DNA of 39,037 bases from a virus (Duplodnaviria; Heunggongvirae; Uroviricota; Caudoviricetes), in the IMG/VR virus record IMGVR_UViG_2778261428_000004, positions 1 through 39,037 of that record; one strand, given 5' to 3'. The notes beneath the pieces are model-generated. The model searched no databases, was not told where the DNA came from, and saw only the letters and a program-made list of their open reading frames with translations. The position numbers and the translations under genes are program-made. Numbering within the stretch: the first letter of the stretch is position 1; each line of letters opens with the position of its first letter. Below are positions 40 through 23,563 of this stretch, one piece after another.

Positions 40-1059
40 TTGTTGGCGGCTTTTACTAAAATAACGACTGTAGTTAATGAGATTAACCATTTTTGCCCAT
101 TAGATGTGTCAGTTGTTATCCCTGTTCATAATCGTGAAAAACTTATTCTTAAATGCATTAACTCACTTAATAACCAAACAATTAATAAGGATCGCTTTGA
201 GGTTATTTTTGTCGATGATTGTTCAAGTGACAAAAGCATTGCTGCTATAGAATATAATATAGCACCGGATATTAACTACAGAATTATTCGCCGAGAAATT
301 GGTTCAGGTAACGCTTCAACCCCGCGAAATGAGGGGATAAAAGCAGCAAAAGGGCGTTATATTTTCTTCATGGATTCCGATGACTATATTGACGAAACTC
401 TTCTTGAGAGAGGGGTTCATATTGCTGATAAAAATAATAGTGATATTGTTTACTTCAAAATTGCATCAGATGGTAATCGCGAGGTGCCTATCCGTCCATA
501 CAAGGTGAAAATTGTAGATAAGGCAGATATAACCAAGCATCACCTCTTGCGGTCGTTAACTATTTTCAAATTCTTCCGAAGAAATATGCTTAAAGAGCAT
601 AACATTCTCTTCAACCCAGCTATCACCGTAGCTGAAGATAAAATATTTATGGTTCAATCTCTATCTGTAGCAAACAATATATCTATTCTTGCTGACAAAG
701 ATTATTATCATTTAACATTCCATGGTAATGGTCATTTATCAAGGCAAAAATTTCCTCTTGAAGATAGACACTTCATTCTTAACTCGGTTATTAACACGAT
801 TTACTTTTGCGGAAAAACTAACGAAGAAAAGGCCAAGCTTTACAATGCGTGGCTGGTGATATGCCTTGAAATGATGGAAAAGGTATGTGGTAAAGCAGGT
901 GGCAACGAGCAAAAGAAAAGGATGTTCTTTAACATGCTCTCAACCACTTTCAACATCCGCTCAGATTTAGTAAATCAGGATATGATTTATACCCCTCAGC
1001 GTAAGTTCATCAAACCTTTTTTACAAAATAATTATGAAGGTTTTATAGCTGAAATTTAA
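40..1059 (+). CDS. Family 2 glycosyltransferase (GT-A fold); start uncertain (TTG at 40/43 or GTG at 106)
   Basis: N-terminal VSVVIPVHN...FEVIFVDDCSSD and downstream MDSDDY motifs are typical of GT2 enzymes. The gene is markedly AT-rich. Its stop lies 46 bp from the tailspike stop. Confidence 0.7.
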   Translation: MLAAFTKITTVVNEINHFCPLDVSVVIPVHNREKLILKCINSLNNQTINKDRFEVIFVDDCSSDKSIAAIEYNIAPDINYRIIRREIGSGNASTPRNEGIKAAKGRYIFFMDSDDYIDETLLERGVHIADKNNSDIVYFKIASDGNREVPIRPYKVKIVDKADITKHHLLRSLTIFKFFRRNMLKEHNILFNPAITVAEDKIFMVQSLSVANNISILADKDYYHLTFHGNGHLSRQKFPLEDRHFILNSVINTIYFCGKTNEEKAKLYNAWLVICLEMMEKVCGKAGGNEQKKRMFFNMLSTTFNIRSDLVNQDMIYTPQRKFIKPFLQNNYEGFIAEI

Positions 1060-1105: not shown

Positions 1106-3751
1106 TCAACCATTTAGTGTTAACTTTAATAATTTTTCCAGATTATTAATCTTTGATGTGATATTGGCAATATCCTGCTCATGGTGATGATATAATGCGC
1201 TCATTGCCAGAAACATTAACTCGTCATAGCGCACTGATAATTTTCTTCCTGATTCCACAATTAACCTTACTTCACCAGTTTCATACTCTTCTTCCTCTGT
1301 GATTTCATCATACTGACCAGACTCTTCATCAATTAAAATTTTTCTGGTCACATTTCTTGTTGCATAGACTTTCTCATACTCATCATCCCACTCTTCATAG
1401 CAAAGAACCCCATAAGAAAATGCATCAAGCCCCTCAGATTCAAAGATGGATTGTATATCTTGCGCAATTACACCGATATGCTCACGCGCTGACAAGCCTT
1501 TTTCTTTTACAGCATCCTTCATTCTGAATTTTTTTATCAGCGGGTAAATAGCCATTCCAACCCGTAGTTCTGCATCAGATAATGAAGCTTCATCCTGCTT
1601 GTAATTTCTGTCGCTGGTTACAATGGGGCTATTATTTATATACAGGTTTCTGACAGTATTCGACTGTGTACCAATATCATAAAGATTTGAACCTGATGGT
1701 CGAAAATGACCTAATTCTGTTAATACCCATCTGTCACGCAAGCCGTCAATCTCTCCCATGGTTCCAAAGTAGAAAGCAACCGGGATATTGTCTCCGGAAG
1801 GATTACCTCTTGTGACGCATTTAATGTGTGCGCATTGCACAGCCTTACTACCTGTATCACCGGCCCATACATGAGTACCCAATACATCCCCTGTCTGCAG
1901 AGCTCCAAAATTATCAGTTGATACAACACCAGAGCGAGACTTATACATTATTGCTCTTGGTCCTTCTGCGGTGTCTGACTGATGCCGGGAAACCCATGAG
2001 TTGCTCATCCCTTCCGTGCCGTTTGAAGCTAACTGCATTCCACCAGTAATTCCGCCATCAAGAAACAATATAGGGTTATCCCGGTTAGTTTGAATACCCT
2101 TTCTTGTTGGCCAAACTGTCCAGTGAAAAGTATCATTGTATTCCCTTACTCCATATTTGAACTCCGGGGAGCCAGAACTATGAAGACCAGTATTACTGGA
2201 TACAGAACGGCTTGCTTTGCTTTGCACTACCGAACCAGACCTGCCTATATCAAACAGATATACATTTTTCCCGTTCTCAGCAACTCCTTTATATGTGCAT
2301 ATTCCCAGCGTTAAAACATACCCACTCTCCGTTCTAATTACTGTTAGGGACTCAGGCTCTTTATAAACAGGAGTTCCTGTACTGTCAGATTTTGCTTCAT
2401 CATCACCAACAGTTGAAATATCTACTCGCTCAATAAACCTGCCTGTTAAGTCAAATACGTAAATATAATTAGTCATGCCAACATACGTATGTGACTCAAG
2501 TATGTAAATGTATGCCCCATCGCAAGCAATTGATTGGGTAAATGCTTCTTGTGATGGTTTTTGATAGCTAAACTCAACTAAATAATCATCACTATAATCA
2601 GTTTTATGAGATCTGTTATTCCACATGCTGACTATGTCGAAAACACGAACCGTGCAGGTAATTCCATCCGATGAAATTTTCTTGGCAAGTAGATAGTTTT
2701 CACAACTTGATACAGTTGGAGTAGAGCTTGCGCTCATTCCATCATAGGGGAACAACTTCCAGGTGATAAAACCTTCAGATACCCCGTTGGTTGTCCCTGT
2801 GTAACTCAATATATTTTCCATCGAAATACATTGATTGGCGGCATCGGTTCCATAAGGCTTCGATGTCCACAGCACGACAGTACCATCAGGATTATGATGC
2901 AATCCAAGCCCCTGATGCCCAAGTTCAGTAGAACGGGTTCTGTCGTATCTTCCTAGTTCACCAGAATTCGTCACGTCAAAGGCATTAATGCAATAACCGT
3001 ATGCTGTGGTAGATGATAAAGTAAAAATCTTGTCGTTAATTTCATCATAACAACACCCCTGAATGACCGCATATAAACCACCCGCACCTTCAGTTCTGCG
3101 CAACGTGTGTCTGGTGTTATATACTTTTGGCATTCCGGAAAATATCAATGGCTCTCTTTTATCTCTTAATTTAAGATCACCAATCGCAATTCGTTTACTG
3201 CCATCACGAATAAAAGAACCATTTATATAGCTATTTTCAATAAAACTTTTAGTAACAAAAAATGCTCTTCCACTTAAATCAATAACCCTATTTTTTATAT
3301 CCATTTCCAACGCGACAAATGCTTCAGTATCATCGCTAATCCCATCCCCCTTAGCTCCAAAATAAAGAGGAGACATATTTAGCATATCATTTGATAATAC
3401 TTTTTGTTTAAACTGATCCGGGTCGTACTTCAACACATTCGGAAAATAAAACTGCTGCGAACCATACGCATCATATACAGCCATAGAATGGCCTTGCACA
3501 GTTACGAATTTGGCAATCTGTCCGTTATATACCGGATACCCGCCAGCGTTAATGATGATTGGCTGTGCAACAGGAACGTGAGAACCGTCTTCATTCTCTA
3601 CATAAACCTGAATCTGGTTTTCAGGATTTACCGGGTCAGTGTCAATTTTTCCGATATAAATTTTGCCATTGGCAACCGCTTTAAAAGAACGCGCCATAGT
3701 GAAGAGTTGCGAAGGCATGCTTACCACAACATTTGCGGTGATATCTGACAT
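1106..3751 (-). CDS. Tailspike: P22-type N-terminal head-binding domain, divergent central receptor-binding/depolymerase-like domain, C-terminal intramolecular chaperone (peptidase S74-like) domain
   Basis: Start taken at internal ATG 3751 ([11 protein letters not shown]...) with GGAG 7 nt upstream. The first ~115 aa closely match P22 gp9 as recalled. The C-terminal ~130 aa resemble the autocleaving chaperone domain of endosialidase/T5 L-shaped fibre proteins. [14 protein letters not shown] is a beta-helix-type motif. Confidence 0.85.
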
Positions 3752-3872
3752 TTCATTGCTCCAGACGAATGATATGATGCAACCATGATGTGATTGCATA
3801 CCGAAATGGTACTATTGAGTATTTATCCAGTAGGTTACGATGCCATTCCACCCAACTGGTGAGGCATCAAGG
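3752..3872. promoter_or_regulatory. Divergent intergenic region between tailspike and mnt starts; candidate Pmnt / remnant Pant-operator region
   Basis: 121-bp gap between divergent start codons. By analogy with P22 immI this would hold the mnt promoter and Mnt operator, but I could not identify the operator with certainty. Confidence 0.3.
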
Positions 3873-4139
3873 ATGTACAGCAAATACGATGAGGCGCAGT
3901 TTCACTTGAGACTTCCGCATGAACTCCACGCGAAAATTAAGCAGCGTGCGAAGATGAATAACAGATCGCTGAACTCAGAGATAATTGCAGCGATTGAAGA
4001 ATCGTTGGCTAAACAAAGCTCTGCATCCGTTTACATTGATGATGCAGAGCGTATGGCAGAACAACAATCTGATATGGTTAAGAAAATGGTATTTGAAACG
4101 CTTAAGACCATGTATAGCAATAATAAAAAGGAAACATAG
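3873..4139 (+). CDS. mnt: Mnt-family ribbon-helix-helix repressor (P22 immI Mnt homolog)
   Basis: Sequence RLPHELHAKIKQRAKMNNRSLNSEII...DDAERMAEQQSDMVKKMVFETLK aligns with P22 Mnt as recalled. Start taken at internal ATG 3873 with AAGG upstream. Confidence 0.8.
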   Translation: MYSKYDEAQFHLRLPHELHAKIKQRAKMNNRSLNSEIIAAIEESLAKQSSASVYIDDAERMAEQQSDMVKKMVFETLKTMYSNNKKET

Positions 4140-4209
4140 AAATCTAGTTTCCGGCTAAAATGGCATTGCCTTCATGCTATCCTGTGAAAAACTAAGGAGA
4201 GTTAACCAT

Positions 4210-4695
4210 ATGAAAAAATCACTGTTAATTATCCCGCTTCTGCTGGTTGGATGCGCAAAAGTAAGTGACTATCAAGCAAGTTGCGAACAACGCTATCCAA
4301 AGCTTAGCGATATGGCTAATTGTCTTGATGCCAGTGTGAAGAACGACTCACGCATGGCATCAGCACCAACACCTAAGCTGTATGTCCTTGCTGCAAAGAT
4401 GCTCGGGCAAGGTGTCGATGAAGGCAAGATAAGTGACGCACAGGCAAGACTTGAGCTTCAGAATCTTTATGTTCAATTACAAAGCCAAGAACAAGCCCAA
4501 CAAATAGCACAAAGCCAAGCATTCCAGCAGGCTTTATTGAATTATCAGGCTGTAAACACAATGCAAGCGATCGAGCAAAAAGCGCGCCAGCCTGTTATAA
4601 CTCAACCTTACCCAACACGCGTTGACACATATACAAACTGCAATTCAGGATTTGGAAACACGGTAACATGCAACAGTAGCAGTAACATCAGATAA
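4210..4695 (+). CDS. Putative lipoprotein of unknown function (signal peptide plus lipobox LVGC), Gln-rich
   Basis: Start at ATG 4210 with AAGGAG 6 nt upstream. MKKSLLIIPLLLVGCAK is a classic SPII signal/lipobox. It occupies the sieA/immI position between gp16 and the tailspike. Confidence 0.65.
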   Translation: MKKSLLIIPLLLVGCAKVSDYQASCEQRYPKLSDMANCLDASVKNDSRMASAPTPKLYVLAAKMLGQGVDEGKISDAQARLELQNLYVQLQSQEQAQQIAQSQAFQQALLNYQAVNTMQAIEQKARQPVITQPYPTRVDTYTNCNSGFGNTVTCNSSSNIR

Positions 4696-4785
4696 CAATC
4701 AGCAAAGGTATCGCCTATGCAGATGGATACGATAAACCTCGCGTTCTACATATTTGGTTTTTGCACGTTCCTGGTGTTTGAAAGG

Positions 4786-6783
4786 CTATTCTGACAATGC
4801 ATCAGACTTAGCCCCCTGCGTCATGGCGTTAATGGCCTTTTGTGCCTGCTGCATGGCTTTCTCGAACGCTGTTGATCCGCGTGGGGTGTTTGCCATTCGG
4901 AGCATTGCATTTCTGAATGGCTCGCTCTCATAGGCGCGAGTAAGAAGTCCGTAGCTTACCGCTGCGCCAGTTGTCGCAGGGTTCATTGCTGTCCCATATC
5001 CGATAATGAACGGGATGGTTTGCTGCCCTGTTGGTGTTGTTACTGCCGCTTTTGCAGCCTGCTGCGTGGATTGCAGGTAGTTTTTCAATCCTTTCAGATA
5101 AGCGGCTTCCTGACCTTTAAATGTGATGCCAGTCTGGTTTTGCAGGATGTTAAGCTGCCGAAGGAACTGGTCAGGGGAACCACCTGATTTCTCCATCGCC
5201 TTTCCAATGATGCCATTGCGCATTTGCGCCCTGCCAACACGACCAACTGAGTTATACAGAGTCTTAATTTCCGATTTGTTCTTGCTGAATAGCATGTTGT
5301 TGACAACTTCCGGCGTCAGGTCGCCTTTCATGAGAACATTCTTCAGCCTGGTATTCTTTAGTTTCGCCGCTTCGTCAGCGTAGACGGCATTGGCCTGCTG
5401 ATATTTACGAAGAGTATCGTTGCCAAGATTCTGACCAATGGCACCATTGATATCGTCGGTCATCGCCTTGTAAACACGTTGAATGGCGGCATCGGAACGG
5501 TTTGGTAACACTGGTCGCTCCCCCTTCACGTCCATTCTGAACTGGCTGCGCAGATCGCTTAATTGCTTCAAATCCAGATTAACCGGACCATCAGGGCCAG
5601 CATTGCGAACAAGCTCATCACGATATGACTGAAGTTTTGAAATTGTCTCGTTATCAGCTACCTTACCAAGCTTCTGCAGATTAGATATTTCTGTATCAAT
5701 CTGCTGAATTGCTCGCGCAGGCTGAATGTTTACTCCAGCCATAGCATTCTGAACCTGCTCCAGTCGATTACCGGCGGCACGACGAATTCCTGATGTTTTC
5801 GCTTTAAGGCTGTCAATAACAACCGCTGGATCATACTCACCGAATTTATCGGCAAATCTCTGCACCAACTGGCTTCTCGCTTCCTGTTGCGTTGCTCTCA
5901 TTCCGCTTGTGCCAGCCAGAGGGATATTTTCTGCTGTAGTCTGCGCCATTTTTCCGACGCGGGAAGTGGGTTGTAACAGGTCTGTGGTGTGCAGAGGAAC
6001 TCCTTCACGCTCTGCAAATCTGATAGCCTGCTGCGCTTCTGGCGCAATAGCACCACGAACGCCACGATAAGCAGCACCTAATCCACGCCCGGCAGCGTTA
6101 ATAGCAGCGCCAGCAAGTACACCAACGCCTAAATCGGTGGCGAGTGCTTCCGCATCATCTTTCGCACTATTTGCAGCAAGTGATCCAACTGCGTTTTCTG
6201 CTAGAAGGCGAGTTGCCCCCTGAGCAATTCGACCAGCAAGTGTTGGTGCCTGTACCGCCGCTCTCTCAACGCCAGCAGGAGTGAGGTAAGGCAATGCTTC
6301 AGCAAATACCTTTCCCTCTGTCGTTTGTGGAGTCAGCGCACCTTGCTGAAGGCCAAAGTCCTGCTCTAATCCCTGCGTTGTTACTCGTGGTGCTGGTTGA
6401 TATGTACCATCGCCAATACCGAGTTTACCGCCAGCCCAAGCCGCCGCGCTTGTTACAGCATCGGCAACTGATGCAGGTATGTTTGCCACGTTCACGCCAG
6501 CCTGCACCATTCCGCGACCAGTCTCTTTTACTGCTTCGCCAAGATCAGACATAAATCCACTTTGCTGTGGTTGTTGCTGTGCTACTGGTTGCTGTGTCTC
6601 CACTGACTGCACAAATGGCAATGGATAGGCAGCATAGAAAGCTTGCTTAGCCTGCTCTGCATTTTCTCCGGCTTGCGGGGCCACGACTTCATTGAAGTAT
6701 TGCTCCTGAGCCTGCGCTTTTTGTTCTGGTGCTAACGCCTGATACTGTGGAGAGGCGATAACATCTTTCCATGCTTTAGCCAT
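4786..6783 (-). CDS. Ejection (internal virion) protein, P22 gp16-like
   Basis: Position last in the 7-20-16 ejection protein series; long Ala/Gly/Gln-rich protein. Assigned by synteny with P22. Confidence 0.7.
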   Translation of the reverse strand: MAKAWKDVIASPQYQALAPEQKAQAQEQYFNEVVAPQAGENAEQAKQAFYAAYPLPFVQSVETQQPVAQQQPQQSGFMSDLGEAVKETGRGMVQAGVNVANIPASVADAVTSAAAWAGGKLGIGDGTYQPAPRVTTQGLEQDFGLQQGALTPQTTEGKVFAEALPYLTPAGVERAAVQAPTLAGRIAQGATRLLAENAVGSLAANSAKDDAEALATDLGVGVLAGAAINAAGRGLGAAYRGVRGAIAPEAQQAIRFAEREGVPLHTTDLLQPTSRVGKMAQTTAENIPLAGTSGMRATQQEARSQLVQRFADKFGEYDPAVVIDSLKAKTSGIRRAAGNRLEQVQNAMAGVNIQPARAIQQIDTEISNLQKLGKVADNETISKLQSYRDELVRNAGPDGPVNLDLKQLSDLRSQFRMDVKGERPVLPNRSDAAIQRVYKAMTDDINGAIGQNLGNDTLRKYQQANAVYADEAAKLKNTRLKNVLMKGDLTPEVVNNMLFSKNKSEIKTLYNSVGRVGRAQMRNGIIGKAMEKSGGSPDQFLRQLNILQNQTGITFKGQEAAYLKGLKNYLQSTQQAAKAAVTTPTGQQTIPFIIGYGTAMNPATTGAAVSYGLLTRAYESEPFRNAMLRMANTPRGSTAFEKAMQQAQKAINAMTQGAKSDALSE

Positions 6784-8180
6784 TAATCACCCCATAGTGA
6801 AGAAAAGTTACTGCTGGCTGCTGGCTGTGATACCTGTGCAGGTTGAGATTGCTGCCGCTGAGATTTACCAACATTAACGTTATATTGTTGGTTGTAATTG
6901 TTGGTGTATTCCTGAATCTCACGAATCGACTGCTGCATAGCCTCCGGGCTTGAATAGTCAACCTGCGGCATCCCCTGAAAATACATCTTCGCTTCTGCAA
7001 CGGTGTTAATACCACTGGCACCCATGTCCCTTGCTGCCGCCACACCCTGATTCTGCATTCTGCCCTGAATACGTTGTGCTGAGTTATATAACTGGCGCTG
7101 CTCTTTTCCCGTTAATCGGCTGCGAACATCAGCACCAATTGCTGGATTACCTGCACCGCCTGTCATTCCTGTCATGAAATCGAGAGCAGAAGCGTCTGCA
7201 TTTGCGATCGCGTCGATATCCTTCTTCATGGCATAGTTTTGTGCTGATGCAGACGATGTTGCCGGCGCAGCGATTGAACTGGCAGGAACGCGAACCATAT
7301 TCCCCTCGTTGTCGATGCCTTCGTAGAACGCATTAGCCCCAGCGCCGTGAAGCTTCCCGCCTACCGTTACAGTTCTGCCATCTGATAACTGAACTGTACG
7401 CTCATCATTCCCAGCAGTTCCTCTTGTTGACGATCGCTGCATTGCCAAATCCTGACCGCGTCGTGCAGTAGAAGCAGATAAATCCTGACCGCGCATCGTG
7501 ATGTTCTGACCACGCGCTGTTAGTGCTTCTCCAGCCTGATTGCTGCGGATTGTCTCTGCCAGTCTGCCTCGGTCAATTTCACGACCAGCCATCTTGTCCT
7601 GAACAGCAAACGCCTTTTCTGGCCCAAGTGCACCGAGAGACATAGTAGTCAGCATGTGTGATAGCTGCTCTGGATTCTGGATACCTGTCTGAATCATCCA
7701 GTCAGCATTCGCCCCCACGCGATTTAACCTGTCCTTGTTGTCAGTAATGAATTTACTGTAGGCTTCCGGTCCCTGAGAAAGAGCGACGTTAGCCCTCATG
7801 GCTAAATCGCCCATATCGTTGCGTTGCTGCTCATTAAGACCGGAAAACGCCTGTTGTGCCTGCGCAACAAACGCTGGATTTTCCTGGGCAAACTTAAATA
7901 GTCCCGATGGATCACCAGAAGCCCATGCATCAGCGTGAACCTTATTGAACGCACTAATAGCTTTCTGTTGCTGTTCCTGATTGTAAATATCAGCAACTCC
8001 AGCCAGACCACGTAACGCGGTCAGACCAACGTTATTTGCACCTGAGCGAGCCAGTTCATTGTTTTCGCGGATCAGACCAAGCGTTGCGTTAATGTCGCTT
8101 GCCTTTGGCGCATTCTCATTTTGCGTACCGATGCCAGCCAGAAAACCACCAGAATTAATACCCTGTTGCCACGTAGCCAT
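6783..8180 (-). CDS. Ejection protein, P22 gp20-like
   Basis: 465 aa against 471 aa for P22 gp20; synteny between gp7 and gp16. Confidence 0.7.
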
Positions 8181-12238: not shown

Positions 12239-13534
12239 TCACGCAGTCTGGTTAGGCAGACCAACACCAATTGCCTCTGGTCGTACAGCACATGCTGAAT
12301 ACCACACAGCAATACGGCACTTACCAGACAGAGTGTTGATATCACCCTGCGTTGCGAAGATGCCGTTAACACCAATGCCTGGAATGCTGAAGGAAGACGT
12401 TTTCATACCAGCAAACAGTTCATGGGTTACCGGGATCGGCTGAGACAGAAGGCGGATTGAGTCATCAGCCCAGAACACGTTAGCGGTGGTTGTTGCCACG
12501 TTCAGAACGTTTACCGGAGTGGTATCAGCAAGAGAGGTGTTTACGTTAGCGTAAGCCTTCTCTTCTTTTGTCAGTGACGCGTCATCCAGTGCAATCGGTT
12601 TCGGCGTGATTTCGATGTGAGTACCATCGATCACACGGGTGATTGAGAAAGTCGCATCATCAGTCAGCACATTCTTCGCCATCTGAGACAGGAATTTCAC
12701 ACCAGTGAAGCTGATTTTGTCGCCGCGCTTAAATCCGGTGGTGGAGGATACGGTCACCGTTGCAACACGGTTGTCGACGTTCTCTTTGTTACCATCGGTA
12801 TCAAGGGTGTATGCCTGCGGCTTAAACTTCTGCGCACCAGAAACAGTTACACCAGTAGCGGTTGACTTGGTAACAGCCGGAAGTTTCGGTGAGCGAAGAA
12901 TTTCATCAAAGCCAGCAATCTGACGCTGAATGGTACCGTTGCGATACGCTTCTTCAGGAACGCGCCCGAAGATGTCACCATCTACCAGGTTGCGGCCTGC
13001 TTTGCGGTAATCGTCAGGGTTCAGGAAGTAACTGATGCCCATATCGCGGTTGAGTTCGCGGGAGAACATCAGGCGCTCTGCATCAGACACAAAATCCCAG
13101 CCAGACAGGCCAGTAGATGGACCAATTGCGCGGGTATCGTGAACAACAAGCGAGCCCATTTCAGTTGCCTGTTTGGCAATCGCTGACTCAATGTTATTCG
13201 CCAGTTTTTTGGCGGATGCCTGGATGCGGCGACGGTAAGAACGCTCATCACGCAGGTCATCTGCACGAAGCTCGAAGAAATCGTTATCCGGATCGCCCAT
13301 GTTGCACTTCACGGAGAGTTCCAGAATCCCGGTTGCGTTGCCAGTTAAATCCCAGCCAGTCTGGGTTGGCGCTTCCTGCTCAACAGGCATCCACACGGTG
13401 TTGCTTGAACGCTGCATGGATTCTGCCGGAGGGGTGTATTTTGTCACTTTGGACGCCATTGGCGTCAGGTTCTGGACGGTTTCGATGATTTCATCCAGAG
13501 CATACGTGACCAGTTGACCTTCATTTAATGCCAT
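12239..13534 (-). CDS. Major capsid (coat) protein, P22 gp5-like
   Basis: 431 aa against 430 aa for P22 gp5; position after scaffold; abuts the scaffold gene stop. Confidence 0.85.
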
Positions 13535-19275: not shown

Positions 19276-19714
19276 CACAACCTCGTCTAGTTGTTCGCCA
19301 TAGATTCAGTGGCAGGCGGTGACGATTCCGCTTTTCGGGAGCTACCCTAGCCACTGCTTTATTCTATCCGATGTCTTTCCATCAGTCCGCCACCACAAAG
19401 AATCTTTTTTGCCATAAGGCAGGAGGTTCATCTTTCAGTGGCTGCCAGTGTTATTTCCCCACTTTCTGGCTTGGGTTGTTTCGCTGTACTGCCGTAACTG
19501 GTTACCCAGAATAAATTTTGGTTTCATTATCAAGCCCATCCGTAGATAGGCTTTGTAATGAACTGGCTCTTATCTCAACGCAGCCCATTACTGCGCGCCT
19601 GATGCTCAACTTCAAGCATCAGCAATGAGATGTTTAATCTGGATTCACTCCAGAAGTGATCACCACCCTGTCTACAGAGCCAGATGTGAAGGATGATGAG
19701 TAAAATTATCGCTA

Positions 19715-22554: not shown

Positions 22555-22841
22555 GACTTAATCTTCCCCTCCTTCAGCAGTATCGCCTGCGTCCTGATCA
22601 CGCCTTCGAGGTGGTAAAGTCTGGCGTCTTTGTTGTCGAGGTTATGGGTGCGTCGGTCGATCTCCGCGTGGCAGTCACTACAAGCCCATGCGCCGATCAG
22701 GTCGTCAGGCTTCATTCCCGTTCCGCAAATTCCAGCCATCCGGTAATGTGCCAGAACTGTAGTTTCAGGGTTGCCATTGCATACGCCGTAAATACGTACC
22801 TGGCATTCTCTGCCGCGCGCTTCTTTGCGTAGGTTAGCCAT
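22551..22841 (-). CDS. DUF1364 family protein (YbcO-like, Cys-rich putative nuclease)
   Basis: 96 aa with CxxxxxxC...CSDCH pattern; nin-region position upstream of rusA as in DLP12-type prophages. Confidence 0.55.
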   Translation of the reverse strand: MANLRKEARGRECQVRIYGVCNGNPETTVLAHYRMAGICGTGMKPDDLIGAWACSDCHAEIDRRTHNLDNKDARLYHLEGVIRTQAILLKEGKIKS

Positions 22842-23563
22842 TAAGCAGCCTCCCCTGTTACTTTCAGCATTCCGTTATCGAGCAGCTTTCTGGTCAGCCA
22901 CTGTTGACCACGCCCGGTGATTTTTGTGGTGAACGATATCTGTATTCCGTGATTTGTGTTGACCGCTGTTTCTTTCACTGTGAAATAGCCGCGATCCATA
23001 TATTCCTGCATTGGCACATTTCGCCGGGAACCTGAAGCAATAAGGATTTTGTGATCGCGCATCCACGCAAACAGTTTGTTTGGACCAATACCGACAACCT
23101 TTGCAAAGTTTCCAATCAAAATTCCGCTGGCCTCGCCAACGCGATCGGCAAACTCAACTTTAGGTGCGGCAATTGCGAGCTGGTTTTCCAGTTGCATTTT
23201 CTGCTCAGCAAGGTCAGCAGCAAGGCGCAACGCTTCTGGTAGCGTTTTTGGGATATTAACCGCAGCTTCTTCAAGCTCTCGCCAACGGTCAACAAGACGA
23301 GCGGTGAATTCCGGCGACAACTGGGCAACGACAATAATGCTGTCGCGCTTACCTTGTTCGCCTTCGAAGACGTAAGCCTCGACACTACGGCGCAGTCCTA
23401 AGTTATTGATTTTTTCGAAAACCTGCAATGCAGGAAGTTGAATAACTCCAGATTTAGCCAGGCGCTCTATTGATATTTTTACGTTATCTGGACGACTTCC
23501 CACCAACTCAGCGATTTCAATGCTTGTCATTTTGATGGCATTGCCATTTATTAACTCATTCAT
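22841..23563 (-). CDS. Rha-family regulatory protein with C-terminal KilA-C / antirepressor (Ant-like) domain
   Basis: N-terminal NGNAIKMTSIEIAELVGSRPDNV (Rha-type) and a C-terminal region resembling AntA/KilAC domains; domain assignment is from memory. Confidence 0.6.
   Translation of the reverse strand: MNELINGNAIKMTSIEIAELVGSRPDNVKISIERLAKSGVIQLPALQVFEKINNLGLRRSVEAYVFEGEQGKRDSIIVVAQLSPEFTARLVDRWRELEEAAVNIPKTLPEALRLAADLAEQKMQLENQLAIAAPKVEFADRVGEASGILIGNFAKVVGIGPNKLFAWMRDHKILIASGSRRNVPMQEYMDRGYFTVKETAVNTNHGIQISFTTKITGRGQQWLTRKLLDNGMLKVTGEAA

Follow-up and report, generated by a model that had tools for sequence, protein, structure and literature searches.

The window, by which we mean the whole 39,037-nt stretch of DNA analyzed here, carries, in order, gp20, gp16, two genes on the opposite strand (encoding a lipoprotein and Mnt), and the tailspike gene (Table 1). 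At the homologous site, phage P22 has the order 20, 16, (sieA, orf59a, mnt), arc, ant, 9. Because the gene order of the window mirrors that of P22, the lipoprotein gene is the occupant of the sieA/orf59a slot, in the same orientation, and synteny with P22 thereby bears out an earlier note on this DNA, which had placed the lipoprotein where P22 carries sieA. On one side, the gene 16 homolog, whose product is 33% identical to P22 gp16, is convergent with the lipoprotein gene and bounds the late-operon block upstream of the cassette. On the other side, the tailspike has a P22-type head-binding domain (aa 1-113) and shares 75% identity with P22 gp9 over its first 114 aa, but its receptor domain is a different one, and an S74 chaperone domain lies at its C terminus.

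Table 1. Features at the gene 16/tailspike junction, in window coordinates
Feature	Position	Strand	Basis
Tailspike gene	1106..3751	-	Pfam Head_binding 9e-67, Peptidase_S74 7e-8
Divergent intergenic region, 121 bp	3752..3872	.	Tailspike starts at 3751 (-), mnt at 3873 (+)
Putative Mnt operator, CATACC-GAAAT-GGTACT	3797..3813	.	17-bp palindrome, core TACC-N5-GGTA, position homologous to P22 Omnt
P22 Pmnt homolog (predicted promoter)	3815..3841	+	-35 TTGAGT (3815-3820), 15-nt spacer, -10 TACGAT (3836-3841)
P22 Pant remnant, tailspike-facing	3818..3846	-	ATGGCA-17-AATACT
mnt, ribbon-helix-helix repressor with Mnt C-terminal tetramerization domain	3873..4139	+	Pfam, P22 Mnt alignment
Hairpin GGAAAC...GUUUCC overlapping the mnt stop	4130..4152	+	RNA fold; no U-tract
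Candidate extended -10, TGcTATCCT, upstream of the lipoprotein gene	4175..4183	+	Read from sequence, weak inference
Lipoprotein gene, 161 aa	4210..4695	+	Signal peptide, lipobox LVGC, phrog_6067
Gene 16 homolog (ejection protein)	4786..6783	-	phrog_770 DNA transfer protein 2e-237

The Mnt protein of the window is 88 aa long and shares 47% identity with P22 Mnt. It has an N-terminal Arc-like ribbon-helix-helix DNA-binding domain, as evidenced by a match to Pfam Arc (PF03869, 8.4e-15, residues 7-49), and a C-terminal coiled-coil tetramerization domain that matches Repressor_Mnt above the curated cutoff (PF11423, 4e-12, residues 57-81); the gene had been called a clear mnt homolog, and these matches confirm it. 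The beta-strand motif is QFHLRL in the window protein versus HFNFRM in P22 Mnt. An in-frame ATG at 3840 was rejected as the mnt start because its counterpart in Serratia and Gally is not in frame with mnt. The annotation of Sf101 gives a 97-aa "Mnt," i.e., it uses the upstream in-frame ATG.

No arc or ant follows mnt, just as the earlier note had observed, and neither gene lies elsewhere in the 39,037 nt: a tblastn search with P22 Arc, Ant, SieA, and orf59a over the whole window returned no homolog (best E = 0.09). The sole antirepressor-like gene in the window, at 22841-23563 inside the nin operon, encodes a protein with Rha and ANT/KilAC domains. We considered and rejected it as another target for Mnt, given its translational coupling within that operon and the absence of any Mnt operator copy near it in pattern searches. 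Searching the whole window against Rfam gave an int-alpA match only, and none in the mnt/lipoprotein region.

The orphan state of mnt is common. We surveyed Mnt types in a sample of 225 viral contigs, in which arc/ant were present at 77 of 80 P22-type loci, 0 of 78 QFHLRL-type loci, and 0 of 64 QFNLRL-type loci; two of the three subtypes (142 loci) are thus without arc/ant throughout this sample. The full module (mnt and lipoprotein locus) was found in 106 of 5,426 complete Escherichia coli genomes (~2%), and the chromosome of E. coli B7A carries the same module at 96% identity. Among E. coli-type P22-like prophages, the mnt-only arrangement is in the majority. These counts contradict the implication in the earlier note that the locus is unusual, as does the 2008 description by Villafane, Zayas, Gilcrease, Kropinski, and Casjens of mnt-only "ant morons" in ST64T, ST104, and Para1 (PMC2629481), Fig. 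3 of which draws E. coli B7A.

The mnt and tailspike starts diverge across exactly the 121 nt first reported (3752-3872), and the length of this gap is identical in 65 of the 78 QFHLRL-type viral loci. Alignments revealed that its mnt-proximal half is conserved across genera and that its tailspike-proximal half is variable except for the ribosome-binding site. A comparison of the gap with P22 Omnt, proposed at the outset as a check, uncovered a putative operator: CATACCGAAATGGTACT (3797-3813) aligns with P22 Omnt AGGTCCACCGTGGACCT, is two-fold symmetric over 17 bp, and lies directly upstream of the Pmnt -35, as in P22. The full 17-mer has a single match in the window, even with 3 mismatches allowed; a relaxed 15-mer pattern with 1 mismatch gave an additional match at 12933-12947, which lacks the GGTA arm.

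Comparative evidence supports this putative operator. The arms are conserved and the center varies in Escherichia, Buttiauxella, Serratia, and Salmonella phage VSe13, and across five genera the arms are invariant and the centers variable; the Serratia arm, AGTACC, is perfect, and the left arm of the window, CATACC, departs from it. Moreover, the arms covary across genera with the beta-strand residues of Mnt. The operator is AGGTCCAC-N-GTGGACCT for P22, GACCAC-N-GTGGTC for Gally, and TACC-N5-GGTA for the window type, which delineates at least three natural Mnt classes when motif and half-site are paired: HFNFRM with GGTCCAC, QFNLRL with GACCAC, and QFHLRL with GTACC-N5. This Mnt has lost its P22 target, and a putative operator is still present in the gap.

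By sequence criteria, the orphan mnt is functional, a point on which the earlier note had made its reading depend. The gene has a dN/dS of ~0.10 across 59 unique alleles (0.12 for P22-type mnt, by comparison), its open reading frame is intact in 79 of 79 cases, and the exact protein sequence of the window recurs in at least 1000 contigs. The selection data have already largely refuted the idea that an immI deletion left mnt behind as a functionless, decaying relic, which we consider highly improbable. Such a relic would fit the loss of the known target, ant, the shortening of the Pmnt spacer to 15 nt in the window lineage, and one Citrobacter locus in which mnt is broken and an operator arm has decayed; it does not fit uniformly intact reading frames, selection equal to that on P22-type mnt, or operator arms that are conserved across genera and covary with the recognition residues.

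Downstream of the putative operator, the Pmnt homolog matches the position of the annotated P22 Pmnt, TTGAGA-17-TATCAT. Its TTG and TAnnAT are conserved among relatives in the alignment, and the 17-nt spacer of those relatives has been reduced by a 2-bp deletion in the window lineage. On a crude, home-made position weight matrix (PWM) whose scores are comparative only, Pmnt reaches 6.9 in the window, 7.8 to 10.9 in relatives, and 13.0 in P22. By the same comparative measure, the tailspike-facing remnant of Pant scores 6.2, versus 15.3 for P22 Pant and a median of 5.2 for random 140-nt sequences. Also, orphan loci differ in their Pant hexamers (the -35 is TCGGCA, CAGGCA, or TAAGCA, and the -10 varies), whereas loci with arc/ant keep a perfect TTGACA. 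A consensus promoter scan of the 121-bp gap found nothing convincing. The remnant is probably not a functional promoter. Because no minus-strand terminator-like site was found in a scan between gp16 and the tailspike gene, late-operon readthrough can supply tailspike mRNA.

This evidence makes it unlikely that Mnt controls the tailspike gene by repressing a promoter for it in the gap, whether to keep the gene off in lysogens or to tune its dose. Certain details do favor such control: the putative operator is located where the start site of P22 Pant would be, the remnant is placed so that bound Mnt would block it, and P22 Pant transcripts, together with late-operon readthrough over the ant moron, are thought to affect the tailspike level (PMC2629481). 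Nevertheless, the remnant scores at background and has hexamers that differ from one orphan locus to the next, conservation is poor in the tailspike-proximal half of the gap, and no terminator was found that would block late readthrough. Autoregulation by Mnt is better supported than tailspike control because the Pmnt homolog has been kept and the tailspike-facing promoter has a background score. Of the two non-ant targets that had been suggested for Mnt, itself and the tailspike, the first is thus the better supported, and the second gains little support.

Transcription may continue from mnt into the lipoprotein gene. The hairpin at the mnt stop is a weak terminator at best, so readthrough is possible, and no plus-strand terminator-like site was found in a scan of 3650-4850. 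The candidate extended -10 ahead of the lipoprotein gene was missed by the consensus scan; TGnTATCCT is retained in VSe13 behind another upstream gene.

The second gene has the hallmarks of a lipoprotein, as originally described. Its product begins with MKKSLLIIPLLLVGC, preceded by a ribosome-binding site, AAGGAG, at 4194-4199, and the signal MKK-SLLIIPLL-LVGC comprises a charged n-region, a hydrophobic h-region, and a lipobox with Cys15, a residue conserved at 90% or more across 80 members of the family. The +2 residue is Ala (Val in Morganella and Providencia), and the +2 rule by itself (no Asp at +2) predicts sorting to the outer membrane. The reported Gln richness is likewise apparent, with 15 Gln among the 47 residues from 84 to 130. 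In an AF2 model (pLDDT 87.8), the N-domain is helical and contains the invariant Cys25 and Cys38, residues 76-126 form a Gln-rich helix of 51 residues, and a beta-hairpin at the C terminus holds Cys144 and Cys154; these conserved cysteines would form the disulfides. The gene is under strong purifying selection (dN/dS 0.06), and alignment revealed that C-terminal modules have been swapped among otherwise similar lipoproteins.

Database searches link this protein to no characterized family. PHROGs returned only phrog_6067 (function unknown) and weak matches confined to the signal peptide; Pfam, NCBIfam, PADLOC, and a PDB profile search gave no family match, no sequence similarity to SieA, Cor, or PADLOC models was detected, and no fold similarity to known proteins, including exclusion proteins, was found. 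NCBIfam has a subthreshold GspK match on the Gln-rich helix. The wider family comprises 251 clusters at 50% identity, many of different composition. Single-protein scans of viral contigs for remote members found nothing.

Lipoprotein and mnt are distributed independently. The lipoprotein gene is present at 41 of 78 QFHLRL, 27 of 64 QFNLRL, and 5 of 80 P22-type loci, and mnt is the only cassette gene in ~73 loci. At the gene 16/tailspike site, the lipoprotein occurs in P22-like prophages of at least 10 genera, with or without mnt; prophages of Morganella and Yersinia have it without mnt, and the Serratia copy begins 17 nt downstream of mnt. The window shares the lipoprotein with Gally, VSe13, and 720R6 and mnt with P22.

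What makes an exclusion role for the lipoprotein plausible is its position. A tentative but credible alternative is that it is a host fitness or envelope moron like lambda Bor, acting in serum resistance or envelope stability. Every family member with readable context (remote members sit on ~1-kb contigs) lies in a P22-like prophage at the gene 16/tailspike site, which points to a function linked with this phage type, and swapped C-terminal modules are what one would expect of an arms-race interface. Both observations argue against an envelope moron. However, prophage outer membrane lipoproteins with roles other than exclusion do exist, e.g., Bor (cited in PMC7067206), the family is large and many of its clusters differ in composition, and a decayed prophage remnant in E. 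coli GMF054 has kept the gene.

A bolder version of the exclusion reading, which we regard as speculative and somewhat doubtful, would make the lipoprotein the founder of a widespread family of periplasmic proteins anchored to the outer membrane, used by P22-like prophages for superinfection exclusion. Here, the conduit formed by the ejection proteins (gp7/gp20/gp16), or the point where it enters through the outer membrane, would be intercepted by a 7-nm helix whose disulfide-stapled tip can be swapped, making the lipoprotein a periplasm-side counterpart of the inner-membrane SieA. The orphan Mnt would form a specificity class of its own and would have been kept as a lysogen-specific switch for the locus.

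The transcripts themselves might also matter. RNA from Pmnt and the lipoprotein promoter would be antisense to the gene 16-tailspike late mRNA, and it could confer immunity against closely related superinfecting phages or damp leaky late expression. There is precedent at the same junction: BTP1 STnc6030, an antisense RNA of ~786 nt expressed in lysogens, provides immunity to BTP1 (Owen et al. 2020, PMC7067206). No terminator was found after the lipoprotein gene, so transcription may extend into gp16 at its 3' end. Yet we judge an antisense role distinctly unlikely; its effect would be limited to near-identical phages, and strong purifying selection on both open reading frames implies that protein function is primary.

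Taken together, the locus is probably a common "ant moron" variant of P22-like (Lederbergvirus) prophages in which two independent cassettes, an autoregulating Mnt and a lipoprotein moron, have been inserted into the late operon, antisense to it, at the gene 16/tailspike junction. The first cassette would be an immunity-I remnant reduced to mnt, its own promoter, and a putative operator. In a lysogen, Mnt tetramers would bind at 3797-3813 and mainly control their own promoter, and this control may also reach the downstream gene via readthrough. The former Pant, now facing the tailspike gene, would have decayed, such that the tailspike is made by late-operon readthrough. The second cassette would be a separately mobile lipoprotein moron expressed from the prophage. 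Its product would be anchored in the inner leaflet of the outer membrane, with a helix of ~7 nm and a disulfide-stapled tip projecting into the periplasm. We infer all these functions of the QFHLRL-type Mnt and the lipoprotein from sequence. The 15-nt spacer and the modest PWM score of the predicted Pmnt promoter count against this explanation, as do the imperfect left operator arm and the failure to find any sequence or fold resemblance between the lipoprotein and known exclusion proteins. Also, if Pant is truly dead, selection for a purely self-regulating repressor lacks an obvious reason, especially where mnt is the only cassette gene.

The arrangement itself carries little weight; the prophage locus is hypervariable, and this variant of it has been diagrammed before. 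The three Mnt specificity classes are a ready-made natural data set for the recognition rules of ribbon-helix-helix proteins, and they raise the question of why a repressor survives the loss of its only known target. The lipoprotein family is conserved, strongly selected, confidently modeled, and completely uncharacterized.

Compared with known systems, the window locus is an already described, common variant of the P22-like variable gene cassette. The published mnt-only ant moron pairs mnt with a gene of unknown function and lacks both arc and ant (PMC2629481). It occupies the same site between gene 16 and gene 9 homologs, with its genes antisense to the late operon, and the window fits this description by synteny and by an mnt and a lipoprotein common to its relatives. 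Nothing essential differs, although the Salmonella examples carry another unknown gene; that study leaves the operators and the lipoprotein unanalyzed. P22 immI (mnt, Omnt, Pmnt/Pant, arc, sar, and ant) shares with the window both Mnt domains, the divergent layout, and a 17-bp palindrome. In contrast, the window is without arc, ant, and a recognizable Pant, so it has no arc and ant behind a strong Mnt-repressed promoter, and what lies downstream of its putative operator is the tailspike gene. The recognition residues are Gln/His/Arg in the window Mnt and His6/Asn8/Arg10 in P22, and the operator half-sites differ too.

According to Leavitt et al. 2024 (PMC10883804), P22-like prophages in many Enterobacterales always carry their SieA-like genes in the interval from gene 16 to gene 9. 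P22 SieA has the same genomic slot and orientation as the window lipoprotein, but it is a multipass inner-membrane protein, whereas the lipoprotein is secreted, predicted to reside in the outer membrane, and without sequence similarity to it. Indeed, whereas SieA types A to C are polytopic inner-membrane proteins, the lipoprotein has an N-terminal signal peptide only and a soluble, helical model, and tblastn with P22 SieA gave no match in the window. Cor (phi80/HK022/N15), Llp (T5), and Ltp (TP-J34) are likewise small phage or prophage lipoproteins made independently of structural genes, but they have neither homology nor a fold match to the window lipoprotein. They act on FhuA or the tape measure protein, neither of which is used by P22-like phages. 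STnc6030 is reported to be noncoding, whereas the same strand in the window holds two protein genes under purifying selection. The characterized functions found at the gene 16/tailspike locus, namely, immI, SieA (PMC10883804), and STnc6030 (PMC7067206), are all immunity or exclusion. Because it is confined to this slot, the lipoprotein would be an inexpensive and sensible choice to test in an exclusion screen.

The window represents the genome of a P22-like (Lederbergvirus) phage or prophage. In it, two plus-strand genes, for an Mnt homolog and a lipoprotein, separate gp16 from the tailspike gene. The Mnt homolog carries both Mnt domains and is 47% identical to P22 Mnt, and exactly 121 nt separate the tailspike start (3751) from that of mnt (3873). 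When the whole window was searched by tblastn with P22 Arc, Ant, SieA, and orf59a, no match was found anywhere. The earlier note had reported an Mnt homolog 121 bp from a divergent tailspike start, with arc and ant absent and a lipoprotein in the place of sieA, and this description is confirmed in all particulars.

Features of the window, with coordinates and strand
Feature	Coordinates	Strand	Description
Glycosyltransferase	40-1059	+	family 2
Tailspike	1106-3751	-	Pfam Head_binding + Peptidase_S74
Putative Mnt operator	3797-3813		CATACCGAAATGGTACT
Pmnt homolog	3815-3841		TTGAGT-15-TACGAT; 2-bp deletion, window E. coli lineage
Inverted repeat, mnt leader	3839-3844 and 3863-3868		GATGCC-N18-GGCATC, conserved
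mnt	3873-4139	+	88 aa; Arc-type ribbon-helix-helix domain + Mnt-specific C-terminal domain
Candidate extended -10	4175-4183		TGcTATCCT; common to VSe13
Lipoprotein gene	4210-4695	+	161 aa; start MKKSLLIIPLLLVGC, AAGGAG just 5'
gp16	4786-6783	-	ejection-protein gene
gp20	6783-8180	-	ejection-protein gene
Relaxed operator match	12933-12947		arm-only pattern, 1 mismatch; lacks GGTA arm
int-alpA RNA	19295-19357	-	Rfam match, 46.2 bits (gathering score 35.8)
Rha + ANT/KilAC-domain gene	22841-23563	-	240 aa; within nin operon

The glycosyltransferase gene, its 5' end cut off by the window start (the PGAP homolog is 1116 bp), converges with the tailspike gene, in which the S74 chaperone domain forms the C-terminal end. 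The two genes are found together in E. coli C, CUVM3, and CPww7 (95-99% identity), and the glycosyltransferase probably serves in O-antigen or capsule conversion suited to the specificity of the tailspike. The int-alpA match is flanked by the small-terminase block and the lysis block and is far from the integrase. The nin-operon protein matches phrog_63, "anti-repressor Ant" (7e-97), and Pfam ANT (9e-33), with weak similarity over 37 aa to the P22 Ant C terminus (E = 0.09). Its start codon overlaps the upstream ORF, and no Mnt operator copy was found near the gene.

The arrangement of mnt and lipoprotein genes is already known and common. Villafane et al. (2008) introduced the name "ant moron" for this hypervariable region and drew the E. 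coli B7A prophage in their Figure 3 (PMC2629481); the B7A chromosome carries the window module at 96% identity. Likewise, mnt directly adjoins the tailspike gene in phages Sf101, IME10, Gally, vB_EcoP-720R6, and VSe13. Three Mnt queries were used to sample 225 IMG/VR loci, which were sorted by beta-strand motif. Loci of the P22 type (HFNFRM) have arc as the upstream neighbor of mnt, with arc and ant in 77/80 and the lipoprotein in 5/80. Neither the window type (QFHLRL, 0/78) nor the Gally type (QFNLRL, 0/64) has arc and ant; the upstream neighbor is the tailspike gene in both, across a 121-nt gap in 65 of the window-type loci, and the lipoprotein is present in 41/78 and 27/64, respectively. 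A set of 5,426 complete E. coli genomes includes several hundred with the mnt-tailspike junction and 106 with the whole module from tailspike start through mnt to lipoprotein. The exact Mnt and lipoprotein protein sequences occur on at least 1000 and on 255 contigs, respectively.

Some relatives carry further genes here. An HNH-type homing endonuclease ORF (179 aa; 2330-2869 in relative locus L036) lies in the tailspike-mnt gap, as one also does in E. coli EC1515 and M160133, extending the gap from 121 to about 730 nt. In E. coli GMF054, a decayed prophage at torS/torT (2928196-2938799) has been reduced to its glycosyltransferase, tailspike, mnt, gp16, and gp20 genes, two lipoprotein genes, and part of gp7; IS911 and a piece of an integrase gene come next. 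The survival of this moron-rich end may reflect domestication.

Orphan mnt genes are maintained. All 79 of 79 QFHLRL-type genes are intact ORFs, and their pooled dN/dS (0.10) is treated as equal to that of P22-type mnt (0.12), which still controls ant. Aligning the gap with P22, as the earlier note had proposed, places P22 Omnt (AGGTCCACCGTGGACCT) opposite a candidate operator, the only full 17-mer match in the window. Its arms are kept across relatives while the five central bases differ: AGTACC-ATTAT/ATGTT/ATTTT-GGTACT in Serratia, CGTACC-AAAAT-GGTACT in Buttiauxella, AATACC-TAAAT-GGTACT in Escherichia sp., and CATACC-TAAAT-GGTACG in VSe13. Gally-type Mnt pairs with GACCAC-N-GTGGTC, with all four bases occurring at the center, and P22-type Mnt with GGTCCAC-N-GTGGACC. 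Where P22 Mnt has His6/Asn8/Arg10, the window protein has Gln/His/Arg, and work by Sauer and Susskind reportedly showed that these beta-strand positions read the operator. Because the arms are conserved, the residues covary, and a Citrobacter locus with a disrupted mnt N terminus (L099, 3300-6000) has a right arm decayed to AGTACG, footprint and covariation provide evidence for a functional repressor-operator pair. Further into that Citrobacter locus lie two antirepressor-like genes and 53-aa Arc-like and 119-aa Mnt-like genes, which look like a second, different immI-like module within one ant moron.

What Mnt would control is suggested by the promoters. The gap is conserved from the operator through the mnt start, and its tailspike-proximal half is variable, with many indels, except for the ribosome-binding site. 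All relatives show a homolog (TTGnnn-17-TAnnAT) of P22 Pmnt (TTGAGA-17-TATCAT). On a crude PWM (random 140-nt median, 5.2; 99th percentile, 10.3), P22 Pant and Pmnt score 15.3 and 13.0, and Pmnt homologs of orphan loci score 6.9-10.9. The tailspike-facing Pant homolog of the window (ATGGCA-17-AATACT) scores 6.2, and the same position scores 4.4 in VSe13 and 5.8 in Serratia; the best tailspike-facing matches in Gally, Buttiauxella, and Providencia (5.4-7.6) are at nonhomologous positions. Pant hexamers are not conserved in orphan loci, whereas loci keeping arc/ant have a perfect TTGACA. No minus-strand terminator-like site was found between gp16 and tailspike in the window. The best reading of these sequences is that the tailspike would be expressed by late-operon readthrough, that Pant would have decayed, and that Mnt would govern mainly its own promoter. 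The earlier note's interpretation is partly supported: its suggestion of a target other than ant likely holds for mnt itself, given the retained operator and Pmnt homolog. Control of the tailspike gene, its other suggestion, is improbable, a weaker option than autoregulation. A purely autoregulated repressor offers no obvious selective benefit, above all in the roughly 73 loci where mnt is the sole cassette gene. The leader inverted repeat could form an mRNA hairpin beside the ribosome-binding site or be a second protein site, and an ATGCC..TCCAC element that never varies overlaps both the Pmnt -10/discriminator and the position once held by the Pant -35.

The lipoprotein matches only phrog_6067 ("unknown function") and no family in Pfam, NCBIfam, or PADLOC. 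Its close homologs form 94 clusters, all Enterobacterales and all "hypothetical," and a profile search gave 251 clusters at 50% identity, likewise without a Pfam match. In every case where the surroundings could be read, a P22-like prophage carries the gene between gene 16 and tailspike. The gene is an independent cassette rather than an Mnt partner, because it occurs without mnt in Morganella and Yersinia, starts 17 nt past mnt in Serratia, and is separated from mnt by an extra opposite-strand gene in Gally and VSe13. Gally-type loci encode, on the late-operon strand between these two genes, a second, unrelated lipoprotein (139 aa, lipobox LSGC; 3067-3486 in Gally, 7408-7827 in the GMF054 locus) that PGAP names "peptidase associated/transthyretin-like domain." The hairpin 3' of mnt lacks a U-tract, and expression of the studied lipoprotein by readthrough, from its own promoter, or both is plausible.

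The lipoprotein has a dN/dS of 0.06, and little or no variation is seen at residues such as the lipid Cys15 and the pairs Cys25/Cys38 and Cys144/Cys154. The alanine at +2 predicts that the protein is sorted to the outer membrane. Otherwise alike proteins differ by swapped C-terminal modules, at least two tips (...TNCNSGFGNTVTCNSSSNIR versus ...TTNCTTYGNQTRCQSY) occurring on near-identical N-domains, which suggests recombinational exchange of a specificity element. We tentatively propose that the protein is prophage-expressed, outer-membrane-anchored, and periplasmic and would interfere with an early postadsorption step of P22-like infection. This role was chosen because the characterized functions found at the locus (immI, SieA, and STnc6030) relate without exception to immunity or exclusion and because exclusion factors make up most characterized phage lipoproteins; the main rival, a Bor-like host-fitness role, is only slightly less probable. 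What remains of interest is a natural series of Mnt specificities and a well-modeled but uncharacterized family of lipoproteins linked to a hotspot of immunity functions. There, SieA (PMC10883804) and the BTP1 antisense RNA STnc6030 (PMC7067206) have characterized functions, and, compared with the annotated P22 map, the lipoprotein gene of the window holds the orf59a/sieA slot in the identical orientation.
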